Shown: piece by piece, positions 8,665 through 26,591 of the stretch
Position numbering within the stretch: the first letter of the stretch is position 1
How the letters are laid out: each line of letters begins with the position of its first letter
DNA from: a bacterium
GTDB taxonomy: Bacteria; Ratteibacteria; UBA8468
NCBI GenBank assembly: GCA_030637775.1
Contig: DAOWFY010000140.1
Coordinates: 1-28,088, forward strand
Length of the DNA: 28,088 nucleotides
Direction of reading: 5' to 3'
The notes under the pieces: generated by a model
What the model was told of the DNA's origin: nothing
What the model saw: only the letters and a program-made list of their open reading frames with translations
Databases searched by the model: none
Made by a program: the position numbers and the translations under genes

Positions 8665-10114
8665 GGGTATTTCTCAGACTTTCGTTACGGAAACAATAGT
8701 TTTGGCAGGTTTCATCTTTATTTACCGCTTGATCGCCAAAAATTTTGGTCCCGAAGGGGTGGGGGAGTATTCCCTAATCAGAAGAGTGGTTAGTTTTATT
8801 CAACCTTTATTGATTTTAGGTTTAGGGATAGGGCTGCCGAGATATATTGCGATGAGTAGGGATAAAGACCAAAGAATTTCATATATAAAAGCAGGCTTTT
8901 TAGTTATAACAGTTTTTACATCACTTTTTTTGATTGTTATAAATCTATTCAGAGTCTATTTTGCCAGAACATTCTTTGGCAATATTGCTTATACCGATCT
9001 GGTTCTGCCTTTTTCATTTCTTCTGATGGGCTTAGTTTTACACATTTTAATCTATTCCTATTTTCGCGGACGATTATTTGTAAAAACCTTTAATTCTCTC
9101 CAAGTAATAAATTTATCTTTGGTCCCGATTATTATTCTTATTTTTTTCAGAAATATTACGATCTCAAAGTTAATAATTTTAGTAGGCAGTAACACTTTTA
9201 TAATTGCTTTTCTTTTTTCTTTACCCTTTATTAAAGACCTCTTTGCTCCTCTTAAAAAACTACAACTTAAAAATTCATTAAAGGAACTGTTTCGTTATAG
9301 TCTACCTCGCGTTCCCGGTGATTTTGCTCTTGCCGGTCTTTTTTCCTTAGGTCCCATCTTTGCGGCCCATTTTACCCCTATTGAAGAGGTAGGTTATCTT
9401 TCCGTAAGCCAGAGCCTGTTGATTGGAATGTGTGGAATGGTTGCTCCAATAGGCATAATTCTTCTTCCCAGGGTCAGTCTTTTAATCGCTCAAGGGGAGC
9501 AAGAAACAATAAAGAAAAATTTGGATTTGTTTATTGCTGCTATTTTCCAGTGTTCCATCTTTGTGTGTGCTCAACTGATAATATTCACCGAGAGCATCAT
9601 AAAGTACTGGTTGGGTCCTGAATTCTCTGGCGCTATTCCCGTAATGCGTATCGCCCTCCTTTCCACAATTTTTTATACTTTCTATATCGGGATGAGAACT
9701 ATTTTGGATGCCACAAAAGTTAAACCTCTAAATACAATAAACATTTCTATCTCCCTGGGTACTTTTTTGTTAATTGCCGGAATGCTATTGTTCATCTTTA
9801 AGTTCTTTACCCCGGTTATTAGTTTAAGCATCGCCTTTAGTTCGGGATTAATGTCTTTGGGAATTTTAACCTATATTTCCCTGAGAAAGATATATCCGGA
9901 AAACCTGAAAAAGGATTTGAAACATTTCGGGATAGCTACGGTTATTAATCTTTTATTAGCAGGCATCGCGATGTCAACAAAGCCCTTTATAACTTCAAAA
10001 CTTTACTACTTGATTATCTTTGAAATTTTCTTGGGAATAGTTTACTTATCAATTCTATGGTTACTGAAAATGGATTGGCTGAGACAAATCCCTGAAAGAA
10101 TGTTAATAAAATGA
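8648..10114 (+). CDS. wzx: Oligosaccharide flippase (Wzx, MOP superfamily)
   Basis: About 490 aa, hydrophobic throughout, with FGPEGVGEYS...LGLGIGLPRYIA N-terminal pattern, inside a glycan locus. Confidence 0.75.
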   Translation: MKPTFKGISQTFVTETIVLAGFIFIYRLIAKNFGPEGVGEYSLIRRVVSFIQPLLILGLGIGLPRYIAMSRDKDQRISYIKAGFLVITVFTSLFLIVINLFRVYFARTFFGNIAYTDLVLPFSFLLMGLVLHILIYSYFRGRLFVKTFNSLQVINLSLVPIIILIFFRNITISKLIILVGSNTFIIAFLFSLPFIKDLFAPLKKLQLKNSLKELFRYSLPRVPGDFALAGLFSLGPIFAAHFTPIEEVGYLSVSQSLLIGMCGMVAPIGIILLPRVSLLIAQGEQETIKKNLDLFIAAIFQCSIFVCAQLIIFTESIIKYWLGPEFSGAIPVMRIALLSTIFYTFYIGMRTILDATKVKPLNTINISISLGTFLLIAGMLLFIFKFFTPVISLSIAFSSGLMSLGILTYISLRKIYPENLKKDLKHFGIATVINLLLAGIAMSTKPFITSKLYYLIIFEIFLGIVYLSILWLLKMDWLRQIPERMLIK

Positions 10115-11328
10115 TTTTAGTAATAATTTTTGCCATATTCCTTATTCCTACCAAATACACAGCCTTATCTGAGAGGTTGCATTTGCCATCCTTTCTAAAT
10201 CCAGTATTCTGGTTGTTCGCCATTATTTTCACGGTGATTATTATCAATATTCTAATAAGGCAAAAAGTTCCTAAAGTTCCCAAAAGGCTTCTTCTCCCAT
10301 ATATTGGTTTTGAAGGTTTGATGCTCTTAAGCCTTACCTACACGCCAAATTTAATATACGGGGTAGCTAAGTGTCTTGAGTTTATTACCTATACTACCTT
10401 CGCATGTTTTGCTCCTTTTTTCCTATTTCGGAGTAAATTCATCCTTGAGCGATTTTTTTATACATTAATTGCGATGGGCATCTTCCTCGCGATGGCTGTC
10501 TTTATTACTAACCCTCCGTATCTTTCCTCCCCGATTAAATTCCACACCGTATTTGGCACTAATTACTTAGCAATCCAGCAGATTGTGGGAATGGGGGCCT
10601 TAGTAATCCTTTATTACTCCTTATTTAAAAATCGCTCCAGAAAACAGGTAGGTCGGCTTATCCTCCTATTAATAATGCTTATTGGCGCTCTTTTTTATGC
10701 AGGAGGCAAGGGCGCTGTTCTCAGCTTTTTCATCACAATAATTTTTATGTCAATCGCCTCTATTAAATTTGAGAATAAGTTTAAAAAGATATTAATCAAT
10801 AAGCGGATATTAATTTTTTCCTTTTTGGTGATTTTTGCCGGAGGTTCATTATTATTTTCGAGAATGAGTAAGGCTTTTCTTGCGCGCACCAAGTTTTTAT
10901 TATTGGCTGGGTCCTATGCTCAGGTAGAAAGGTTAGAAAATGCAAAGGTTGCTTTAGAATTAGCTTATTGCCATCCTCTCTCTGGAGTAGGAGTAGGTGG
11001 ATTTAGTGATTTTTCTATTCAGATGAAGGATATAGAAAGATTTAAATACCCGCATAATATATTTTTAGAGGTTATTTCTGAATTGGGCCTGATTGGTTTC
11101 ATATTTTTTGTTCTGATAATCGCCTTTGCTTTTAAACAGCTTCTTTATTTACAAAGCAAATATCGACATTCAGAGTTATATCCCTTGCCCAATGTAATTC
11201 TTGGCCTCTTTATCTTTTCTTTCTTAAATTCTTTAGCTTCGGGTGATATCAATAACCATTTACTTTTTGCCTGGATTGGCAGCGCATATGCCATTGAACA
11301 GGTTTTAAAATCAAATTTTGACATTTAA
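10111..11328 (+). CDS. O-antigen polymerase/ligase family membrane protein (Wzy_C)
   Basis: Multi-pass; HPLSGVGVGGF and YPHNIFLEVISELGLIG motifs. Position after wzx suggests a polymerase. Confidence 0.8.
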   Translation: MILVIIFAIFLIPTKYTALSERLHLPSFLNPVFWLFAIIFTVIIINILIRQKVPKVPKRLLLPYIGFEGLMLLSLTYTPNLIYGVAKCLEFITYTTFACFAPFFLFRSKFILERFFYTLIAMGIFLAMAVFITNPPYLSSPIKFHTVFGTNYLAIQQIVGMGALVILYYSLFKNRSRKQVGRLILLLIMLIGALFYAGGKGAVLSFFITIIFMSIASIKFENKFKKILINKRILIFSFLVIFAGGSLLFSRMSKAFLARTKFLLLAGSYAQVERLENAKVALELAYCHPLSGVGVGGFSDFSIQMKDIERFKYPHNIFLEVISELGLIGFIFFVLIIAFAFKQLLYLQSKYRHSELYPLPNVILGLFIFSFLNSLASGDINNHLLFAWIGSAYAIEQVLKSNFDI

Positions 11329-18832: not shown

Positions 18833-20642
18833 GATGATGATGAAAAAGGGAATTTTTTTTCTATTAATCGCCGATATCATCCTTATTTATTCGGCAACAA
18901 TCTTAGCCTTCTGTATCCGCTTTCCTGACTTTCTGACCACACCTAACTTTCAGGCATACCAACCGATTGCTGTCTTTCTTGTAGTCATTAAACTTATTGT
19001 TTATTTGCTCTTTGGTCTCTACGGTGGAATCTGGAGGTACGCCAGCATTAATGAAGCCTTCTCTATATTTAAGGCAGTAACTGTAGCCTCCTTAGCAACG
19101 ATCGGTTTTGTCTTCTTTGTCCGGGTTCTTTCCTTTCCCCGTTCAGTCCTTCTGCTTGATTGGTTTTTCAATCTCCTTTTTATCGGTGGGGTAAGGTTTG
19201 CTCTCCGGTTGCGTAAAGAATTTCGAAAGCGTCAAGTGGCTCCCAACAAGCGGTTACTCATTATGGGAGCCGGCGATGCCGGGGAGATGGTCTTGCGTGA
19301 GATTCAGAAACACCCCGAGTTAGGTTATAAGGTTGTAGGCTTTATCGATGATGACTTAAAAAAGGTGGGAAGAAGAATCCATAATTTAGGGGTTTTAGGA
19401 ACAAGAAGGGAAATTGCCAGAATCGTTTCCCAGAAGAATGTTAATGAAATTGTTATCGCCATCCCTTCTGCCTCGGGGAAGACGATTAGAGAAATTGTCA
19501 GTTATTGCGAAAGGACAAGGGCAAAGTTAAAGATTCTACCCGGAATGTATAAGGTCATTAAGGGAGATGTGACTATCTCCCAGATCAGGGAGGTAAAACC
19601 AGAGGATCTTTTGGGCAGAGAGACGATTGAGATAAACTTAGAGGAGATCTCTCAATATTTAAGGGATAAATCTGTACTTGTCACCGGAGCAGCCGGCTCC
19701 ATCGGTTGCGAACTTTCCCGTCAAGTTATGAAATTTAACCCTAAGAAACTTCTCCTTTTGGATAATAATGAAAACGAGACCTATTTCCTGCAGATGGAGT
19801 TAAAGAAAAAGGAACATTCATTCCCGATCATTTTTCTTGTCAATGATATCAAAGAGAAGCAAGTCTTAGAGGCGATCTGGAAAGAGCACCAGCCAGAGGT
19901 AGTTTTCCACGCCGCCGCACACAAGCATGTTCCCTTGATGGAGGAAAATGTTGTTGGGGCAGTGAGAAATAACGTCCTGGGAACAAAAAATTTAATGGAG
20001 GCAGCAAAAAAAACGGAGAGGTTCATTCTTATCTCCACCGATAAGGCGGTGAATCCAAAAAGTATTATGGGGGCAACCAAAAGAATTACTGAATTAATGA
20101 TGCAACTCTCTACAAATGAAACAAAATTCTGTGCGGTGAGATTCGGCAATGTCCTGGGAAGTAAAGGAAGTGTAATTCCCCTCTTTAAAAAACAGATTGC
20201 CGAAGGTGGTCCGGTAACCGTAACCCATCCGGAAATAAAGCGCTACTTTATGAGTGCCCGGGAGGCGGTCAGCCTCATCATTCAGGCCGGAGCAATGAGT
20301 AAAGGTGGGGAGGTCTTTATTCTCGATATGGGAGAGCCGATAAAGATTATTGATTTAGCAAAAGACCTCATCACCCTCTCTGGTCTTCAACCGGAGACCG
20401 ATATTCCTGTTAAGATTATTGGTCTTCGTCCGGGAGAGAAGCTCAACGAGGAACTACTGACCGCCGAGGAGGGTATAAAAGCTACCAAGCATAAGAAGAT
20501 CTTTGTTGCCAGACCGGATACTGTTAATCCAGAAGAGTTACTAAAAGACCTCGATGATTTAGAAAGACTTACTCTCTCCGGAGAAAGAGATTCGATCGTC
20601 AAAAGGCTTCAGAAGATGAGGGTATTGCGAGGAGATGAATGA
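18831..20642 (+). CDS. Membrane-bound UDP-GlcNAc 4,6-dehydratase (PglF/CapD/WbpM type)
   Basis: N-terminal TM helices; two Rossmann motifs (GAGDAG; TGAAGSIG); HAAAHKHVP; STDKAV; MGATK; VRFGNVLGS. The real start may be ATG 18837 or 18840. Confidence 0.92.
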   Translation: MMMMKKGIFFLLIADIILIYSATILAFCIRFPDFLTTPNFQAYQPIAVFLVVIKLIVYLLFGLYGGIWRYASINEAFSIFKAVTVASLATIGFVFFVRVLSFPRSVLLLDWFFNLLFIGGVRFALRLRKEFRKRQVAPNKRLLIMGAGDAGEMVLREIQKHPELGYKVVGFIDDDLKKVGRRIHNLGVLGTRREIARIVSQKNVNEIVIAIPSASGKTIREIVSYCERTRAKLKILPGMYKVIKGDVTISQIREVKPEDLLGRETIEINLEEISQYLRDKSVLVTGAAGSIGCELSRQVMKFNPKKLLLLDNNENETYFLQMELKKKEHSFPIIFLVNDIKEKQVLEAIWKEHQPEVVFHAAAHKHVPLMEENVVGAVRNNVLGTKNLMEAAKKTERFILISTDKAVNPKSIMGATKRITELMMQLSTNETKFCAVRFGNVLGSKGSVIPLFKKQIAEGGPVTVTHPEIKRYFMSAREAVSLIIQAGAMSKGGEVFILDMGEPIKIIDLAKDLITLSGLQPETDIPVKIIGLRPGEKLNEELLTAEEGIKATKHKKIFVARPDTVNPEELLKDLDDLERLTLSGERDSIVKRLQKMRVLRGDE

Positions 20643-21844
20643 ATGCCCGAGAAAAATTGGTGAACCACTTAGAAAATATTGTAGAAATCTTTTTTCTCCT
20701 CTCGGTCTTCTGCATCCCTGCCGGTCCCGTCCTAAAGTATATCTTCCAGGGCGTTCTTCTTTTTACCTGGATTGTTAAACTTATCGTAAAAAGAGGAATA
20801 GAATTTAACCCTACCTCTCTGGATTACCCCATCCTTCTTTTCGTTATTCTTGGTTTTGCCTCTGTCGTCATAAATTATACGACATTTTATCAAGCCGGGA
20901 AGGGCTTTTCCAATCTCTTGGAATGGTTCTTTGCCTTTTACATTATCGTCCATCTTATCAGAAGAAAGGAACAGCTTAAAAGATTTACCAAGGTCTGGCT
21001 TTTCTCCGCCCTTACCGTTACCTTATATGGTATTTATCAAATTATAAGAGAACCAGGAGGTGCTGTAATCAGCTCCTTTTTCACTCTTAACTCCTATCTG
21101 GCTCAATACCTTGTCCTTATTATGCCGGTAATCCTTGCGCTCCTTCTCTTTAAAAAAACAAAAAAGGAGGGCTCCCGTCCGGTGGACGGGATGGGGAGAA
21201 TCTTTTTGGGAATAATCCTTCTTTTAACCTGGTTTCTCCTTGGCTTAACTATGGAAAGAGGTCCCTGGTTAGGAATCATAGTTGGACTTCTGATGATGGG
21301 GATAGTTCTTCGGGATAAGCGCATCCTTATCGGAATCCCCCTTCTCCTTATGTTGAGCTTCTTTATCTCTCCTCCATCCATCAGAATAAGAGCCATCTCT
21401 ATCTTCCAGCCACGCTGGAGTTTAGAAAGGCTTTACTGCTGGAGGTCTTGTCTCTCAATGACTAAAGACCATCCCTTCTTTGGGGTGGGATTGGGCAACT
21501 TCCGTTATGTTTACCCAAAATATATGCTCGGCGCAGCAAAGGTGAAGTTCCTGCATGCCCATAATATCTTCTTCCAGATTGCTACCGAAATGGGAATCCC
21601 GGGACTGCTTGTTTTCCTCTGGCTATTGTTTAATTTCTTTAAAGCCACCCTTTCTCACATTCAGAAAGACAAATACTTAAGAGCCCTGAATGTAGGTTTT
21701 TCCGCGGGAATCATTGCGATATTGGTCACCAGCCTTTTCCATGATATCTTTCATAGCCGGCAGATTGCCACTTTAACCTGGTATATTATCGGAATGGCGA
21801 TAGCCTCTCATAAGCTGAAAGATCAAGAGACCCCCGGCGATTAA
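20639..21844 (+). CDS. O-antigen ligase family protein (WaaL/Wzy_C)
   Basis: Multi-pass; ERGPW, HPFFGVGLGNF, HAHNIFFQIATEMGIPG. Confidence 0.82.
   Translation: MNAREKLVNHLENIVEIFFLLSVFCIPAGPVLKYIFQGVLLFTWIVKLIVKRGIEFNPTSLDYPILLFVILGFASVVINYTTFYQAGKGFSNLLEWFFAFYIIVHLIRRKEQLKRFTKVWLFSALTVTLYGIYQIIREPGGAVISSFFTLNSYLAQYLVLIMPVILALLLFKKTKKEGSRPVDGMGRIFLGIILLLTWFLLGLTMERGPWLGIIVGLLMMGIVLRDKRILIGIPLLLMLSFFISPPSIRIRAISIFQPRWSLERLYCWRSCLSMTKDHPFFGVGLGNFRYVYPKYMLGAAKVKFLHAHNIFFQIATEMGIPGLLVFLWLLFNFFKATLSHIQKDKYLRALNVGFSAGIIAILVTSLFHDIFHSRQIATLTWYIIGMAIASHKLKDQETPGD
21164..21194 (+). repeat. 31-bp SD-hairpin-ATG element, copy 1 (in-frame in the ligase gene)
   Basis: AAGGAGGGCTCCCGT-ccggtgg-ACGGGATGG; 27/31 identical to 26531-26561 (-). 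Confidence 0.8.
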
Positions 21845-22552
21845 AAAGATGAAAAAGGAGATGACCTGGGTAGGATAAAGGGAAAAGAAAACCGGATTTA
21901 AGTTACCTCTGAGAAAATCTATACTATATCGAGATATGGAATAGAGGAGGAAATAGAAAATTACAATATTTCCATCTTTTGCCCAAGGAGAAAGACTCTT
22001 TTTCTGTTTGCAAAGAAAGAGCAAAATTAAAAAAATTGAAAAATTACTCAAGCTATAGTACAGTTGTGTTGGATGTCGGGATATACCGTCGAAGGGAAAC
22101 CTTGCCCCCCAGAAAAAATCCGTTTCTTTGCCATAGCAGCAGCCGTTAAGGAAGCAGCCAATCCTTCCTATTGCTTGCGCCAAAGGGAGGTAGAGCCCAA
22201 AGTAATCCAATACCCTTAGGGTTGGCAGGCCTGTTCTGCGCAGAAAGAATATTGCCGCGAATAGACCAAAGATGAGGCCTCCTTGAGCCGCCATTCCTCC
22301 GTGGCGGATGGCAATGACTTCGGCAGGATGATGAAGATAGTAGGAGAAATGAACAAGGATATGCAGTAACCTTGCCCCAAAAAGCCCGATGATAACAACC
22401 AGAAAGACAATATTTAAGAGAGCTTCTTCATTCAGTCCTTCCTTTCTTCCGCGGCGTAGCACCAGGAAGCTAACCCAGAGGACTGAAAAAGCAATGACCA
22501 CACCATAGGAATAGATAGCAAAATTACCAATCTTAAAGAGGACGGGATGCAT
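21773..22552 (-). CDS. lgt: Prolipoprotein diacylglyceryl transferase
   Basis: MHPVLF, YSYG, GARL, GRIGCFLNGCCYG, HPTQLY, RYSIDFLR. Confidence 0.9.
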   Translation of the reverse strand: MHPVLFKIGNFAIYSYGVVIAFSVLWVSFLVLRRGRKEGLNEEALLNIVFLVVIIGLFGARLLHILVHFSYYLHHPAEVIAIRHGGMAAQGGLIFGLFAAIFFLRRTGLPTLRVLDYFGLYLPLAQAIGRIGCFLNGCCYGKETDFFWGARFPFDGISRHPTQLYYSLSNFSIFLILLFLCKQKKSLSPWAKDGNIVIFYFLLYSISRYSIDFLRGNLNPVFFSLYPTQVISFFIFLIAGGLLIFQLMRGYRHSDNIPG

Positions 22553-22705
22553 TTGCTGTGAGAATTATCTGAAAGTTAATCTATCCGCATATTTGCTACA
22601 AGATTAATTTGAAAGTTAACTTTCGCATATTGCTACTGAAGTAGCCTGATAGTACAGTCTCGCAATTCCCTACTGAAGACAACTTGATTAGGAAGTAGCG
22701 GAATT
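22553..22705 (+). repeat. Dispersed promoter-like palindromic element, copy B (with internal tandem duplication)
   Basis: Homologous to 11331-11447. A unit of about 35 nt is duplicated (22563-22599 and 22603-22636). Abuts the lgt ATG and contains the lspA stop. Confidence 0.85.
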
Positions 22706-23128
22706 TTTTATCTCATGAATTAACAGAATTATAATTCCAATTGTGATGCCACTATCGGCTAAATTAAAGATCGGCCAAACCCTGAAATCAAGGAAATCAA
22801 TCACCGCCCCAAATCTTACCCGGTCGATAAGGTTTCCCAAAATTCCTCCTGTGATAAGTCCGGTTGCTATCCTTTGAGCTCGATTCCTTCTTGCTCTTCG
22901 CAAGAAAAATATAAGCATACCTATTGCTAAGAGAGATAGGACCAGATAAAATAAAAGGGGGATTTTCCCTTTGAAGAGGCCAAAGGAGATCCCAGGATTT
23001 TTAATGTAGGTAAGATACAAAAGATGAGGGATAAGCACAACCGATTGACCCTGGTATAGAGAAAGTCTGACCAAATATTTTGTCAGCTGGTCAAAAAAAA
23101 GGACAATAATCCCAACCCAAATGGACAT
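22688..23128 (-). CDS. lspA: Lipoprotein signal peptidase II
   Basis: DQLTK, NPGISFG, GNLIDR, VIDFL, FNLAD (both catalytic Asp). Start set at ATG 23128; the upstream ATG 23155 lies inside an inverted repeat. Confidence 0.93.
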   Translation of the reverse strand: MSIWVGIIVLFFDQLTKYLVRLSLYQGQSVVLIPHLLYLTYIKNPGISFGLFKGKIPLLFYLVLSLLAIGMLIFFLRRARRNRAQRIATGLITGGILGNLIDRVRFGAVIDFLDFRVWPIFNLADSGITIGIIILLIHEIKNSATS

Positions 23129-23163
23129 ATGGACATGGGGGTCAGGTCTCAACATTTGACAAA

Positions 23164-23245
23164 CTTACGACACCATACTTTCTGCTTACTTTAGTAGTAA
23201 TATGCGGATAGCCCCTGATTAAATCAGGGGTACTCACAGCAAATG
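23164..23245 (-). repeat. Dispersed promoter-like element, copy C (inverted, partial, nested in the 146-bp element)
   Basis: Minus strand reads CATTTGCTGTGAG...CTATCCGCATATTACTACTAAAGTAAGCAGAAAGTATGGTGTCG. The first 13 nt are identical to copy B. Confidence 0.8.
23212..23230. repeat. Perfect 9-bp-stem palindrome inside copy C
   Basis: CCCCTGATT-A-AATCAGGGG; replaces an unrelated segment of about 18 nt present in copies A and B. Confidence 0.8.
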
Positions 23246-23261
23246 TTTATTTGGTAAATTG

Positions 23262-23639
23262 TCAAATGTTGAGACCTGACCCCTCATCTTTCTTCTGGCA
23301 GGCAATGCAAAGTCTGGCATAAGGAAGAGCGCGCAGCCTCTTTTTGCCAATCTTTTTACGGCATTCCTCGCAAATCCCAAATAATTTTTTTTCAAGTTTT
23401 GCCAGAGCATTATTAATTTCTACGATCAGTTTACCTTCGGAAGAGGCAAGATCCAGGTCCAAATTTTTCTCAAAGTTATCACTGGCCAACTCAGCCAAGT
23501 GTGTTGGAATACCTGGATTCTCGCCTTCTACCTGTCTCAACTCCAAACTACCCTTCTGGAGAGCTCCAATCGCCTCTAAAATTCTAATCTTTTCCTTGAT
23601 CAGCAATTTTTTGTATTTCTCCCTTTCCTTTTTATTCAT
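23262..23639 (-). CDS. TraR/DksA C4-type zinc-finger protein
   Basis: Coiled coil with tip THLAELASD; CEEC...RLRALPYARLCIAC. Second Met chosen because a purine-rich SD precedes it (alternative start 23654). Stop lies within the 25-bp inverted repeat. Confidence 0.85.
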   Translation of the reverse strand: MNKKEREKYKKLLIKEKIRILEAIGALQKGSLELRQVEGENPGIPTHLAELASDNFEKNLDLDLASSEGKLIVEINNALAKLEKKLFGICEECRKKIGKKRLRALPYARLCIACQKKDEGSGLNI

Positions 23640-23650
23640 TTTCCTTCCCC

Positions 23651-24115
23651 TCATAAATCAAAGATAATTCTTGTTTGCCAGAGATTTGGCTTTTTCTGTA
23701 ATACTTTCAGGTTATGGTAAGTAGCAGCTTTTATCTCCCTTTTTGGGATTTGGCTATTTTTTTTAATCTTTCCCTTCAGGCAAAATCTATTTTTTATCTT
23801 TCCAATCTTAATTTTGAATTGAGCAAAAATTGCTTTTTCCTTCTCCGCAAGATAGAGCAGTTCGTTAAGGAAACTTACCAAAAGTTCCTCCAAGGTTTTT
23901 GCTGTAACCTTAATTTTGAATTCAATACCATAGGAATTTCCTTTGTAGGGGCTTGATTTATCAAGCCCGCGGGTCGGATGAATCCGACCCCTACACAGTT
24001 TTCCTCCCGCGATGATGCTAAACATCCCGGCTGCGCTCTCTGTAAAGAGTTCCTCCTTGCTCTTCCCTTCGATCAAAAGTCCAATATCTGCCGTATGGTC
24101 AATGACCCGAAACAT
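23651..24115 (-). CDS. Archease (RtcB activator family)
   Basis: [27 protein letters not shown]-terminal IFDL; SD GGAGGG inside the gyrA 3' end. Confidence 0.9.
23944..23995. repeat. GTAG-type REP doublet (REPIN-like) inserted in-frame in archease
   Basis: TGTAGGGG...CCCCTACA ends enclosing two perfect 9-bp stems: GGGCTTGAT-tt-ATCAAGCCC and GGGTCGGAT-ga-ATCCGACCC. Confidence 0.85.
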
Positions 24116-26591
24116 TACCCTCCTCCATCAGGATAACGGAGATATCGCCAATGAAGTCCCCTTTATCTAAGTTAATCAGTTTTACGCCCTGAGTGTTTCT
24201 TCCGATGGGACGGATATCCTTCACGGGAAGGCGAATAATTATCCCTCTTGTGGTAATCAGCATAATCTCATCATCAACGCTTACACTCTTGATGCCCACA
24301 ACATCTCCATTCCTCCCCTTGGTCTTGATATCAATAATTCCCTTGCCACCCCTCTTCTGTTTCCGGTAAAGTTTAACCTTGCTGCGCTTTCCAAAGCCAT
24401 TGGCCGTGACGGTAAGCAGGGAATAATCTTCTTCGGCCACCTCGGCTCCTTTTACCAAATCGCCCTTGGACAGTCTAATTCCACGCACCCCTCTTGCGGT
24501 CCTCCCCATCGGCCGGACATCCTCTTCAGAAAAGTGAATCGATTTACCCTCTCTGGTGGAGAGAATAAGGTCCTTTTTTCCATCGGTAAGTTTTACCTCA
24601 ATCAACTCATCATCCTTTTTCAGGGTAAGAGCGATGATTCCCCCGCGCCTTTGGTGGCTATAGGCAGAAACAGCGGTCTTCTTCACCATTCCCTTCCTGG
24701 TTGCCATCAGCAGAAACAGATTGGCAGAATATTCCTTAATGGGAATAACGGCGGTAACTACCTCCTCGGTGCTAATCTTAAGAAGATTGATGATTGCCTT
24801 TCCCTTTGACTGTCGACTGGCTTCCGGAATCTGATAGGTGGGGAGCCAGTAGACCCGGCCCTTATTGGTGAAGAATAAAAGGGTATCATGGGTAGAGGCA
24901 ATAAAGAAATGCTTGATGTAGTCCTCATCCTTGGTTCTTGCCCCAATGATCCCTTTTCCTCCTCGGTGTTGCCTGCGGTAGGTATCTACCGGAACCCGTT
25001 TCACATAACCGGAGGCAGAAATCGTAATGGCAACATCCTCCTTTTTCACTAAATCAATCTCGGAAAGATCCTCTATTGCCCCAATAATCTTTGTCCTGCG
25101 CTGATCACCAAATCGCTTTTTCAAAGCCGCTAAATCATCCCTAATTACACCGGAAATCTTTTTTTCGCTGGCAAGAATAGACTTCAGTCGCTGAATCTCT
25201 TTTGTCAGTGCTTTGTGTTCCTCATCTATTTTTTCCCGCTCCAATTTAGTCAGACGAGAAAGGGGCATCGCGAGGATGCTGTCGGCCTGAATGGAAGAAA
25301 GTTTAAATGTTTTTATCAGAGAGGATTTAGCTGCTTCCACACTACTGCTCTTTTTGATGAGCTTTATCACCCGATCGATATGCAGGAGAGCAATCTTCAA
25401 ACCAGCAAGGATATGGGCTCGATTCTCTGCTCTCTTCAACTCAAATTGGGTGCGCCGCCTCACCACCTCTCTTCTGTGCTCTAAATAGTGAATCAGCAGT
25501 TCCCGAAGGGGGAGTATTCTTGGTCGATTTTTGACAAGAGCGAGATTAATAATGCCAAAACTGGTGCGCAATGCGGTATGCTTATAGAGTTGATTAAGGA
25601 TAACGTCGGGGTTTTCCCCTGATTTTAGTTCAATGCAGATCCTCATCCCCTCCTTATCGGACTCATCGCGGATTGTGCTGATTCCTTCAATTTTCCTTTC
25701 CTGGGCAAGTGTCGCAATATTTTCGATGAGAGCGCTCTTGTTTACTTCATAGGGGAGTTCCGTAACAATTAAAGCGGCTCTTCCCCTTTCCAACTCCTCT
25801 CCTTTTACCTTGCTCTGTAAGGTAATGATGCCCCTTCCCGTGCGGTAAGCCTCCAGGATTCCTTTTCTTCCGCAGATAAAGCCCCCGGTGGGGAAGTCCG
25901 GTCCGGACAAGACCTTCATCAATTCTTCCAGGTTGCTATCCGGTTTCTCAATCAGAAGAGTAAGGGCATCGATTACCTCATTAATGTTATGGGGAGGGAT
26001 GTTGGTTGCCATGCCCACGGCAATGCCTGAACTGCCATTAAGAAGAAGATTGGGGAGGGAGGAAGGAAGAATGGTTGGCTCGGCCAATGTCCCATCGAAA
26101 TTTGGCGCAAAATTGACCGTTTCCTTATCGATATCGGAGAGAAGAGAAGAGGCAACAGGGGAAAGCCTTGCTTCGGTATACCTCATTGCTGCCGGAGGGT
26201 CTCCATCAACCGAGCCAAAATTTCCCTGACCATCAATAAGAGGGTATCTCAAGGAAAAATCCTGACACATCCGGGTAATGGTGTCATAGATCGCCGCATC
26301 CCCATGGGGGTGATATTTTCCCATCACCTCACCAACAATTCTGGCACTCTTCTTGTAAGGCTTGCCGACAGTTACCCCTAATTCAGACATTCCGTAGAGA
26401 ATTCTCCGGTGCACCGGTTTTAGACCGTCCCTGACATCGGGAAGAGCCCTTCCCACAATAACGCTCATCGCATAGTCAATGTAGGAAGATTTCATCTCCC
26501 TCTCAATCTCTACCGGAACTACCCTCTTCTCCATCCCGTGCACAACACGGGAGCCCTCCTTAACTATCACCTCTTTTTCTTTCTTCACCAT
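24099..26591 (-). CDS. gyrA: DNA gyrase subunit A
   Basis: [26 protein letters not shown] catalytic Tyr, GyrA-box-like QHRGGKG, C-terminal pinwheel blades. Alternative start at 26534. Confidence 0.97.
26531..26561 (-). repeat. 31-bp SD-hairpin-ATG element, copy 2 (5' end of gyrA)
   Basis: Minus strand AAGGAGGGCTCCCGT-gttgtgc-ACGGGATGG. Confidence 0.8.

Follow-up and report, generated by a model that had tools for sequence, protein, structure and literature searches.

Two copies of a 27-nt repeat in one contig

The stretch of DNA analysed here (the window) is 28,088 nucleotides (nt) long. It is contig DAOWFY010000140.1, positions 1 to 28,088 of the forward strand, of GenBank assembly GCA_030637775.1, which represents a bacterium of the Ratteibacteria (GTDB lineage UBA8468). 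Two of its genes each carry a copy of the same hairpin-forming repeat of 27 nt, referred to here as the 27-mer, and this repeat is the subject of the analysis. One host is an open reading frame (ORF) for a WaaL/Wzy_C-type O-antigen ligase family protein of 401 amino acids (20639..21844, + strand), with a Wzy_C domain at residues 193-327. The other is gyrA (24099..26591, - strand), which encodes the 830-amino-acid subunit A of DNA gyrase.

The WaaL copy (21166..21192, + strand) matches the consensus exactly and supplies residues 177-185 of the protein. It consists of a G-rich head, GGAGGGC (21166-21172), and a stem in which positions 21173-21180 pair with 21184-21191 around the loop GGT (21181-21183). 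An ATG is found at 21191-21193. The gyrA copy (26533..26559, - strand) is diverged and older. Its head occupies 26559-26553, its stem is formed by 26552-26545 with 26541-26534, its loop is TGT (26544-26542) and its ATG is at 26534-26532. The gyrA copy encodes part of the N-terminal tail, before the DNA_topoisoIV domain.

The initial annotation had described the two copies as a shared motif, AAGGAGGGCTCCCGT-N7-ACGGGATGG, at 21164-21194 (+) and 26531-26561 (-), and this description is accurate. The motif is matched twice, against 0.00 matches expected (100 shuffles). Both copies are in frame with their host ORFs (the WaaL peptide is KEGSRPVDGMG), all four differences between them are confined to the seven central bases, and each contains a GGAGG as well as an ATG that closes the stem with its A. 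The seventh stem pair is C-G in the WaaL copy and flipped to G-C in the gyrA copy. The eighth pair is C-G in WaaL and U.G in gyrA. The motif is slightly longer than the unit proper, which is 27 nt (21166-21192; 26559-26533) because this is what the empty sites in orthologues define.

A repeat family of the Ratteibacteria

The window's own assembly, G000, is a fragmented metagenome-assembled genome (MAG) of an uncultured bacterium, derived from a cold-seep metagenome (1.40 Mb in 177 contigs, 83.5% complete, GC 41.8%). A strict pattern search of G000, of the kind proposed in the initial annotation, returns 12 matches, so the WaaL and gyrA copies are not alone. A mismatch scan finds 22 copies within 7 mismatches of a 29-nt consensus. 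Nine of these are exact 29-mers, three have one mismatch and the rest have 3-7, and the reversed-sequence control gives 0 matches in G000 at up to 8 mismatches. The consensus of the 27-mer is GGAGGGCTCCCGTCCGGTGGACGGGAT. The sequences that flank different copies in G000 are unrelated to each other. The look-alikes in WaaL and gyrA are members of a genome-wide family of small repeats and are not an artefact.

The family is restricted in its distribution. The other three genomes of its GTDB family, which are Ratteibacteria-like, all carry it, and a search of 37 further genomes of the class found it in none. When 185,579 species genomes and the Joint Genome Institute (JGI) metagenomes were scanned, true copies were found only in Candidatus Ratteibacteria-type MAGs and in contigs with a GC content of 0.40-0.46. 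Six high-GC matches from the public scans (L045, L055, L057, L065, L067, and L068) were rejected as chance, their arms being unpaired and the GGAGGG head missing. The left junction of the WaaL copy also occurs in contigs of two other studies. A search of Rfam with the 27-mer gives no match.

Filled and empty sites

Has the 27-mer moved? Codon alignments of filled and empty orthologues address this, and they include G001, a genome of the same genus, and G002, which is more distant than G001. The peptides of the WaaL and GyrA copies align as a 9-codon insertion in G000. The WaaL site is empty in both G001 and G002, which have exactly 9 codons fewer, and the GyrA site is empty in G002 and G003. 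The GyrA of G000 has one additional Lys codon close to the insert, besides the 9 codons. The ArgD site (TAT^GGA...) and the second of two sites in aspartate kinase (AAA^GGA...) are each filled in G000 and empty in five relatives. The reverse is found at a site represented by contig C20 and locus L048, which is filled in G003 and empty in G000. At the first aspartate kinase site the G000 copy is 9 nt shorter, with the loss placed between GGACGGGAT of the element and the native GGACGGGAA. The missing length is again a multiple of three.

The alignments also define the target. The junction is ambiguous by 2-3 nt (GG/GGA), and there is no longer duplication. A target-site duplication of 4-6 nt was considered and rejected. 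Across sites with different 3' flanks the head of the element is constant, and neither ArgD nor the second aspartate kinase site has a duplication beyond GG(A). GGAG as part of the target, an idea raised by WaaL alone, was also rejected, as the empty sites of ArgD, aspartate kinase site 2, and C20 have no GGAG. A logo built from 33 distinct sites has G at +1 in 32 and at +2 in 31, a purine at each of +3 to +6 in at least 30 and A at -2 in 23. The insertion point therefore lies directly 5' of a GG-purine run, with a target of roughly A-D^GGRGRR. The 27-mer can also land on repeats. In dnaX an exact copy lies directly 5' of a diverged copy as a direct tandem, and in polA and the ORF of a PilM-like protein 27-mers are nested in the loop of a second palindromic insert of ~55 nt (C-rich and G-rich arms). 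Both arrangements are accounted for because the 27-mer's own head (GGGGAG in the diverged dnaX copy) fits the target.

The movement appears to be recent. Host genes are 82-87% identical between G000 and G001, and G001 is empty at all four of the four sites of identical copies. With nine identical copies in G000 and empty sites in a genome of the same genus, the 27-mer is, or recently was, copied to new sites. A separate observation concerns contig C117 of G000 (10206-10219), compared with metagenome locus L056. The site is filled in a relative. G000 has no 27-mer there, and six additional bases (ATGCCG) lie between a repeated GAGAG. These may be a footprint or an unrelated indel.

The hairpin

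The 27-mer is laid out as the 7-nt head GGAGGGC, an 8-bp stem (TCCCGTCC/GGACGGGA), a 3-nt loop and a terminal T. The stem folds alike as RNA or DNA, and on either strand. Over 31 distinct sequences 98.8% of the stem cells are paired, compared with 37-61% in slid controls. In the same set, double-sided changes are found in three stem pairs. One pair is G-C in 22 sequences and A-U in nine, with no half-changed cell at all. Where a stem change is one-sided it gives U.G on the sense strand.

One case can be followed between orthologues. The single antisense copy of G000, in PheT, is shared with G001, as judged by identical flanks and a rare T that both have in the loop, and the two copies differ by a compensatory change at that same pair (G-C/A-T). 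This could be compensation in place. However, both changes are CpG transitions and A-T-type copies are present at other sites, and the difference could also have come from gene conversion or from repeated insertion.

Strand, frame, and position in host genes

A tally of strand and frame had been suggested in the initial annotation. In G000, 20 copies lie in sense orientation within ORFs, one is antisense (PheT) and one is intergenic. Frame 0, which reads GGLPSGGRD, is used by ten of the sense copies: FtsK, a TPR-SPOR protein, a PyrK-like protein, PolA, a Sir2 protein, an ARMT1-like protein, ArgD, aspartate kinase (2 copies), and LplA. Frame 1, which reads EGSRPVDGM, is used by nine: WaaL, DnaX (2 copies), the PilM-like protein (2 copies), a PCMT-nitroreductase protein, RecJ, GyrA, and RseP. 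The remaining sense copy (PMT_2) is in frame 2. This split agrees with the codon placement of GG-purine runs (about 0.37/0.43/0.20). The 27-mer does not avoid genes, since random placement at a coding density of 90% accounts for 21 of 22 copies lying in ORFs. It is also free of stop codons in all six frames. This is so for ~52% of random 27-mers of the element's own composition, but for 3% at the composition of the genome.

The strand is less even than the frame. The sense orientation is found for 20 of 21 copies in G000 (P about 0.006) and, when all sites are taken together, for 25 of 28 (P about 0.016). The target motif itself is on the sense strand in ~70% of cases. As the only cause of the bias the target was therefore rejected, since it would yield about 70% sense and the observed bias is higher.

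Within the host proteins the inserts fall in linkers, tails or loops. The WaaL insert is in a Lys-rich hydrophilic loop between two hydrophobic segments and the GyrA insert is in the N-terminal tail, ahead of the first conserved motif. In FtsK, DnaX, the TPR-SPOR protein and aspartate kinase (site 2) the inserts lie between Pfam domains. The ArgD insert is a gap when aligned to the solved Thermotoga enzyme 2ord, and is placed between a helix and a strand in an AlphaFold2 prediction from a 6-sequence alignment, a poor model (mean predicted local distance difference test score 53.8) that speaks to local secondary structure only. The initial annotation had proposed a tiny intragenic repeat family, and this idea is borne out by the other copies, by the bias of strand and frame, and by the 9-codon gaps in orthologues. 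Its alternative was coincidence, with no other copies and peptides that align without a gap. What is found instead is ~22 copies and peptides that align against gaps.

Some individual copies deserve mention. The intergenic copy is co-oriented with the two tRNA genes that it separates. It is a diverged 27-mer that occupies the 29-nt spacer from tRNA-Arg(GCG) to tRNA-Ser(CGA) (contig C93 of G000, 9961-9989; locus L087:404-430, minus strand). Its end is exactly the first base of tRNA-Ser(CGA), and therefore it would belong to the RNase P leader. In the Sir2-family gene on contig C168 (3883-4700) the 27-mer is inside the FRG-xx-GLW loop. This gene looks broken, with frame shifts and ~50 residues of the conserved core seemingly missing, and it may be a pseudogene or an assembly collapse. 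On contig C165 (366-1712) one ORF of 449 amino acids joins a protein-L-isoaspartate O-methyltransferase domain to a nitroreductase domain, and the 27-mer is in the nitroreductase part.

Relation to known repeats and mobile elements

The closest parallels are the repetitive extragenic palindromic sequences (REPs) and the Rickettsia palindromic elements (RPEs). Both are documented in frame within genes, with enrichment in genes of replication and repair (Di Nocera et al., 2013, PMC3733652). Like the GTAG/CGTC-tagged REPs and RPE-4, RPE-6, and RPE-1, the 27-mer is a short dispersed stem-loop repeat (20-40 bp) with an 8-bp stem and a 3-nt tail. Like the intragenic REPs and RPEs it is lineage-specific, with some copies in frame in genes of known proteins, and both are thought to be neutral loop decorations. 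Hosts of replication and repair are found on both sides, in the case of the 27-mer gyrA, polA, dnaX, ftsK, and recJ. A REP is expected to be a dispersed imperfect-palindrome stem-loop of 20-40 bp, and the 27-mer is one, with its 8-bp stem, 3-nt loop, ~22 copies and 98.8% pairing. However, REPs are mostly extragenic and often form inverted dimers (REPINs), whereas 21 of the 22 copies of the 27-mer are in ORFs and they occur singly or as direct tandems, never as inverted pairs. REPs may also flank the gene of a REP-associated tyrosine (Y1) transposase, an arrangement known as a REPtron. The Y1 ORFs of G000, on contigs C119 and C86, are flanked by another repeat (GGGGTCAGGTCT...). In tag, dimer formation, extragenic location, and REPtron arrangement the 27-mer is thus not a REP, yet it works like one.

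RPEs are in frame in conserved ORFs and absent from orthologues. The same is found here for WaaL, GyrA, ArgD, the two sites of aspartate kinase and C20/L048. Kinship with RPEs is another matter. RPE-1 is ~100-150 bp long, whereas the 27-mer has 27 nt and is confined to one Ratteibacteria-like family, a comparison judged without direct alignment to RPEs. The 27-mer also differs from REPs and RPEs together in being exactly 27 nt, stop-free in six frames, targeted to a purine run and strongly biased to the sense strand. What stands out, besides the new phylum, is an exact 27-nt unit, a purine-run target, near-exclusive sense orientation, and a compensatory change between orthologues.

Transposition of the IS200/IS605 type needs a hairpin, places the element next to a short motif with no duplication and removes it seamlessly. 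A mechanism of this kind would bias the strand, via the lagging-strand template or the exposed non-template strand. The 27-mer likewise shows strand-specific insertion beside a short motif (A-D^GGRGRR, 33 sites), no duplication and seamless empty sites. It resembles the IS200/IS605-derived palindrome-associated transposable elements (PATEs) and the "peel-and-paste" of REPs and their transposases in its hairpin, its orientation bias, its lack of a clear target duplication (2-3 nt ambiguity), and the presence of Y1 genes in the genome. However, a single hairpin of 27 nt is far smaller than a PATE, and no Y1 gene carries the 27-mer hairpin at its ends. [quoted passage not shown] They measure 70-300 bp and have terminal inverted repeats of 15-30 bp and a target-site duplication, whereas the 27-mer has 27 nt and at most 2-3 ambiguous nt (GG/GGA).

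The small dispersed repeats (SDRs) of cyanobacteria are similar in size. Elhai and colleagues reportedly described eight of these in 2008 (SDR1-8), with lengths of 21-27 nt and mobility inferred from presence or absence at orthologous sites. They are said to be mainly intergenic or within other repeats, and not systematically in frame in housekeeping genes. We know of no enzyme for them. The SDRs share with the 27-mer a very small size and frequent nesting in other repeats or hairpins, and the sequences and the phylum are unrelated.

Another group of small inserts is bypassed by ribosomes. The insert of T4 gene 60 and the byps of Magnusiomyces mitochondria (27-55 nt) are short hairpin-forming mobile inserts in coding sequence, always in sense orientation (bioRxiv 10.1101/2022.08.31.505936), and to this extent the 27-mer is alike. 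However, such inserts interrupt the frame, must be hopped over and have matched take-off and landing codons. The 27-mer keeps the frame, has no stop, and in WaaL and other hosts is flanked by unmatched codons. No bypass is needed for it, because the frame is preserved and there is no stop.

A probable miniature mobile element read as a loop

The 27-mer is probably a REP/RPE-like, non-coding miniature mobile element, read by ribosomes as a loop of nine residues. The observations behind this are membership of a family, the exact presence or absence of 27 nt, the target motif, the covariation of the hairpin and the tally of strand and frame. In this scheme a selfish or neutral 27-mer would be copied to sites directly 5' of a GG-purine run. 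The hairpin would be needed by the copying machinery, or by some constraint in place, and would hence be kept via compensatory change. Ribosomes would read through the insert and add nine hydrophilic residues (GGLPSGGRD in frame 0, EGSRPVDGM in frame 1). Insertions leave genes unbroken because they are 27 nt long and stop-free in every frame.

What could move so small a unit? We infer mobilisation in trans by an enzyme that acts on single-stranded DNA, for example one of the HUH/Y1 transposases of the genome. Seen on the other strand, the element would insert 3' of a YYCYCC motif, and its own sequence ends in CTCC. Two sources would then add up to the sense bias, a target rich in purines and the targeting of single strands during replication or transcription. 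Two Y1 transposase ORFs (Y1_Tnp, 320 aa) are present in G000, one on contig C119 (11448-12431, -) and one on contig C86 (1980-2942, +). A link between Y1 genes and the 27-mer by co-occurrence was rejected, Y1 genes being present in 22 of 41 genomes and the 27-mer in 4 of 41.

Several points weigh against a mobile element of the REP type that is read through by ribosomes. At aspartate kinase site 1, G000 and the more distant G002 both carry the 27-mer, while the closer G001 and also G003 are empty. This pattern needs either precise loss or repeated insertion at one site. The unpaired GTAG or CGTC (TGTC/CCTC) tag by which REPs are defined (PMC3733652) is missing. The 27-mer has no GTAG, has CGTC only inside the stem, and carries GGAGGGC as its unpaired head. 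The sense bias is above the expectation from the target, so there is a further contribution from mechanism or from selection. No enzyme could be tied to the 27-mer among the Y1 ORFs of G000, both of which are flanked by a different repeat of 47 copies (GGGGTCAGGTCT...), and of 37 relatives that have no 27-mer, 19 possess Y1 genes. Finally, we infer translation of the insert from its sequence, in that its length is a multiple of three, all its frames are open, and the shortened aspartate kinase copy keeps the frame. RNA runs that contain the locus were looked for, and none turned up.

Alternative explanations

Could the 27-mer be a portable translation start? The initial annotation had suggested that it can donate one. 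The 27-mer would then be kept for a Shine-Dalgarno (SD)-hairpin-ATG arrangement that makes internal or new starts, the folded stem bringing GGAGG near the ATG as in split ribosome-binding sites. The GGAGG is 20 nt from the ATG, a distance that an 8-bp stem would effectively shorten, and the stem is closed by the A of the ATG. In nine copies, with gyrA, waaL and dnaX among them, the ATG is in frame. However, in 11 of the 20 sense copies in ORFs it is out of frame (ten in frame 0, one in frame 2) and opens a frame of just 15-38 codons, and the frame split is that of the target-site background. Nor are the copies concentrated at gene starts. They occur at residues 17 to 645 of their hosts and are near the N-terminus only in gyrA. 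There, the upstream start and the N-terminus MKKEKE... are common to relatives that lack the insert, which makes the gyrA unit an insert after about codon 12 and not a start. One copy even lies between tRNA genes, where there is no translation. The sequence features themselves are real, but nothing supports a role of the 27-mer as a translation start, and we regard this role as quite improbable. The best reading of the SD-like GGAGG and the ATG is that they are by-products of the element sequence.

A different view is that the hairpin, as RNA or DNA, is a structural element selected in place for a local role (in pausing ribosomes at the stem and the SD-like GGAGG, in the stability of mRNA, or as a site for protein binding, as with some REPs), with mobility merely its route of arrival. 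The compensatory difference between the PheT orthologues argues for this, as do the one-sided stem changes, which are U.G on the sense strand and would be C.A on the other, and the excess of sense copies over the target expectation. However, the CpG transitions and the A-T subfamily copies elsewhere mean that gene conversion or repeated insertion could mimic a change in place. The host genes are unrelated and their sites do not coincide in position, most copies are missing from the closest relative with no visible consequence, and Rfam has no match. Selection in place is doubtful, if the most plausible of these alternatives. Somewhat more doubtful still is a combined scenario, in which the 27-mer is the minimal substrate of single-strand transposition (HUH/Y1-type or other) that targets purine runs on the exposed sense strand, and its hairpin is in addition selected in place since SD-hairpin-ATG pauses ribosomes or starts internal translation. 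If true, the 27-mer would be among the smallest autonomous-looking mobile units known, and a selfish 27-mer would rewire the expression of gyrA, dnaX, waaL and other core genes. It is very unlikely that the 27 nt are not translated, because ribosomes skip them, in the manner of T4 gene 60 and the mitochondrial byps, or because they are cut from the RNA, to leave proteins without the nine residues. The length is within the range of byps (bioRxiv 10.1101/2022.08.31.505936), a hairpin is present, matching GGA codons bracket some frame-0 copies, and the SD-like motif and nearly constant sense orientation would fit. However, no stop or frameshift forces a bypass, the take-off site is not followed by a slow codon, and many copies have no matching codons (in WaaL, GAG vs GGG). 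The length is an exact multiple of three, with all frames open, and the frame survives in the shortened copy, which is to be expected only of an insert that is read. The chance that the repeat is a coincidence or an artefact of assembly or sequencing is close to nil. The MAG is fragmented, as noted, and unitigs break at the repeat, but 0 matches are expected by chance, the 27-mer is present in independent assemblies from other studies and habitats, the WaaL left junction recurs in contigs of two other studies, and the pattern is in frame, strand-biased and covarying.

Implications

The 27-mer offers clean before-and-after sites for a mobile unit of 27 nt, a size close to the smallest reported for mobile DNA, in a candidate phylum with no cultured members. 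A repeat whose length is a multiple of three and that is stop-free in six frames can spread through essential genes (gyrA, polA, dnaX, ftsK, pheT, and recJ) without killing the host. The 9-residue inserts are lineage markers, and they call for caution in the annotation and alignment of Ratteibacteria MAGs. A defined target (5' of GGRGRR) together with the strand bias makes the copying mechanism testable.

Other small repeats in the genome

For its 1.4 Mb, G000 is unusually rich in miniature repeats. The ~55-nt palindromic insert in which some 27-mers are nested belongs to a second in-frame family of about 10 copies, with a C-rich arm, a CTCGAG-like centre, and a G-rich arm. Its sites are on contigs C167 (2315-2420, polA), C127 (the PilM-like ORF, two sites), C13, C34, C61, C73, and C75. 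It adds ~17 residues (SPS..PPLEGG..RGGG) to PolA and to the PilM-like protein, where it is a landing site for the 27-mer.

By 14-mer count the commonest repeat of G000 is GGGGTCAGGTCTCAACATTTGACA..., with about 47 copies. It also bounds both Y1_Tnp ORFs, and an inverted pair of it lies in the window (23138-23153, +, and 23268-23283, -). The end of the 47-copy repeat, GGGGTCAG, fits GGGGWSAS, a type of end described for Y1 genes associated with terminal inverted repeats (PMC3733652). The same 14-mer census reveals a GTAG-headed hairpin (GTAGGGGTCGGATTCATCCGACCC, about 13 copies) and several more repeat families with 15-22 copies.

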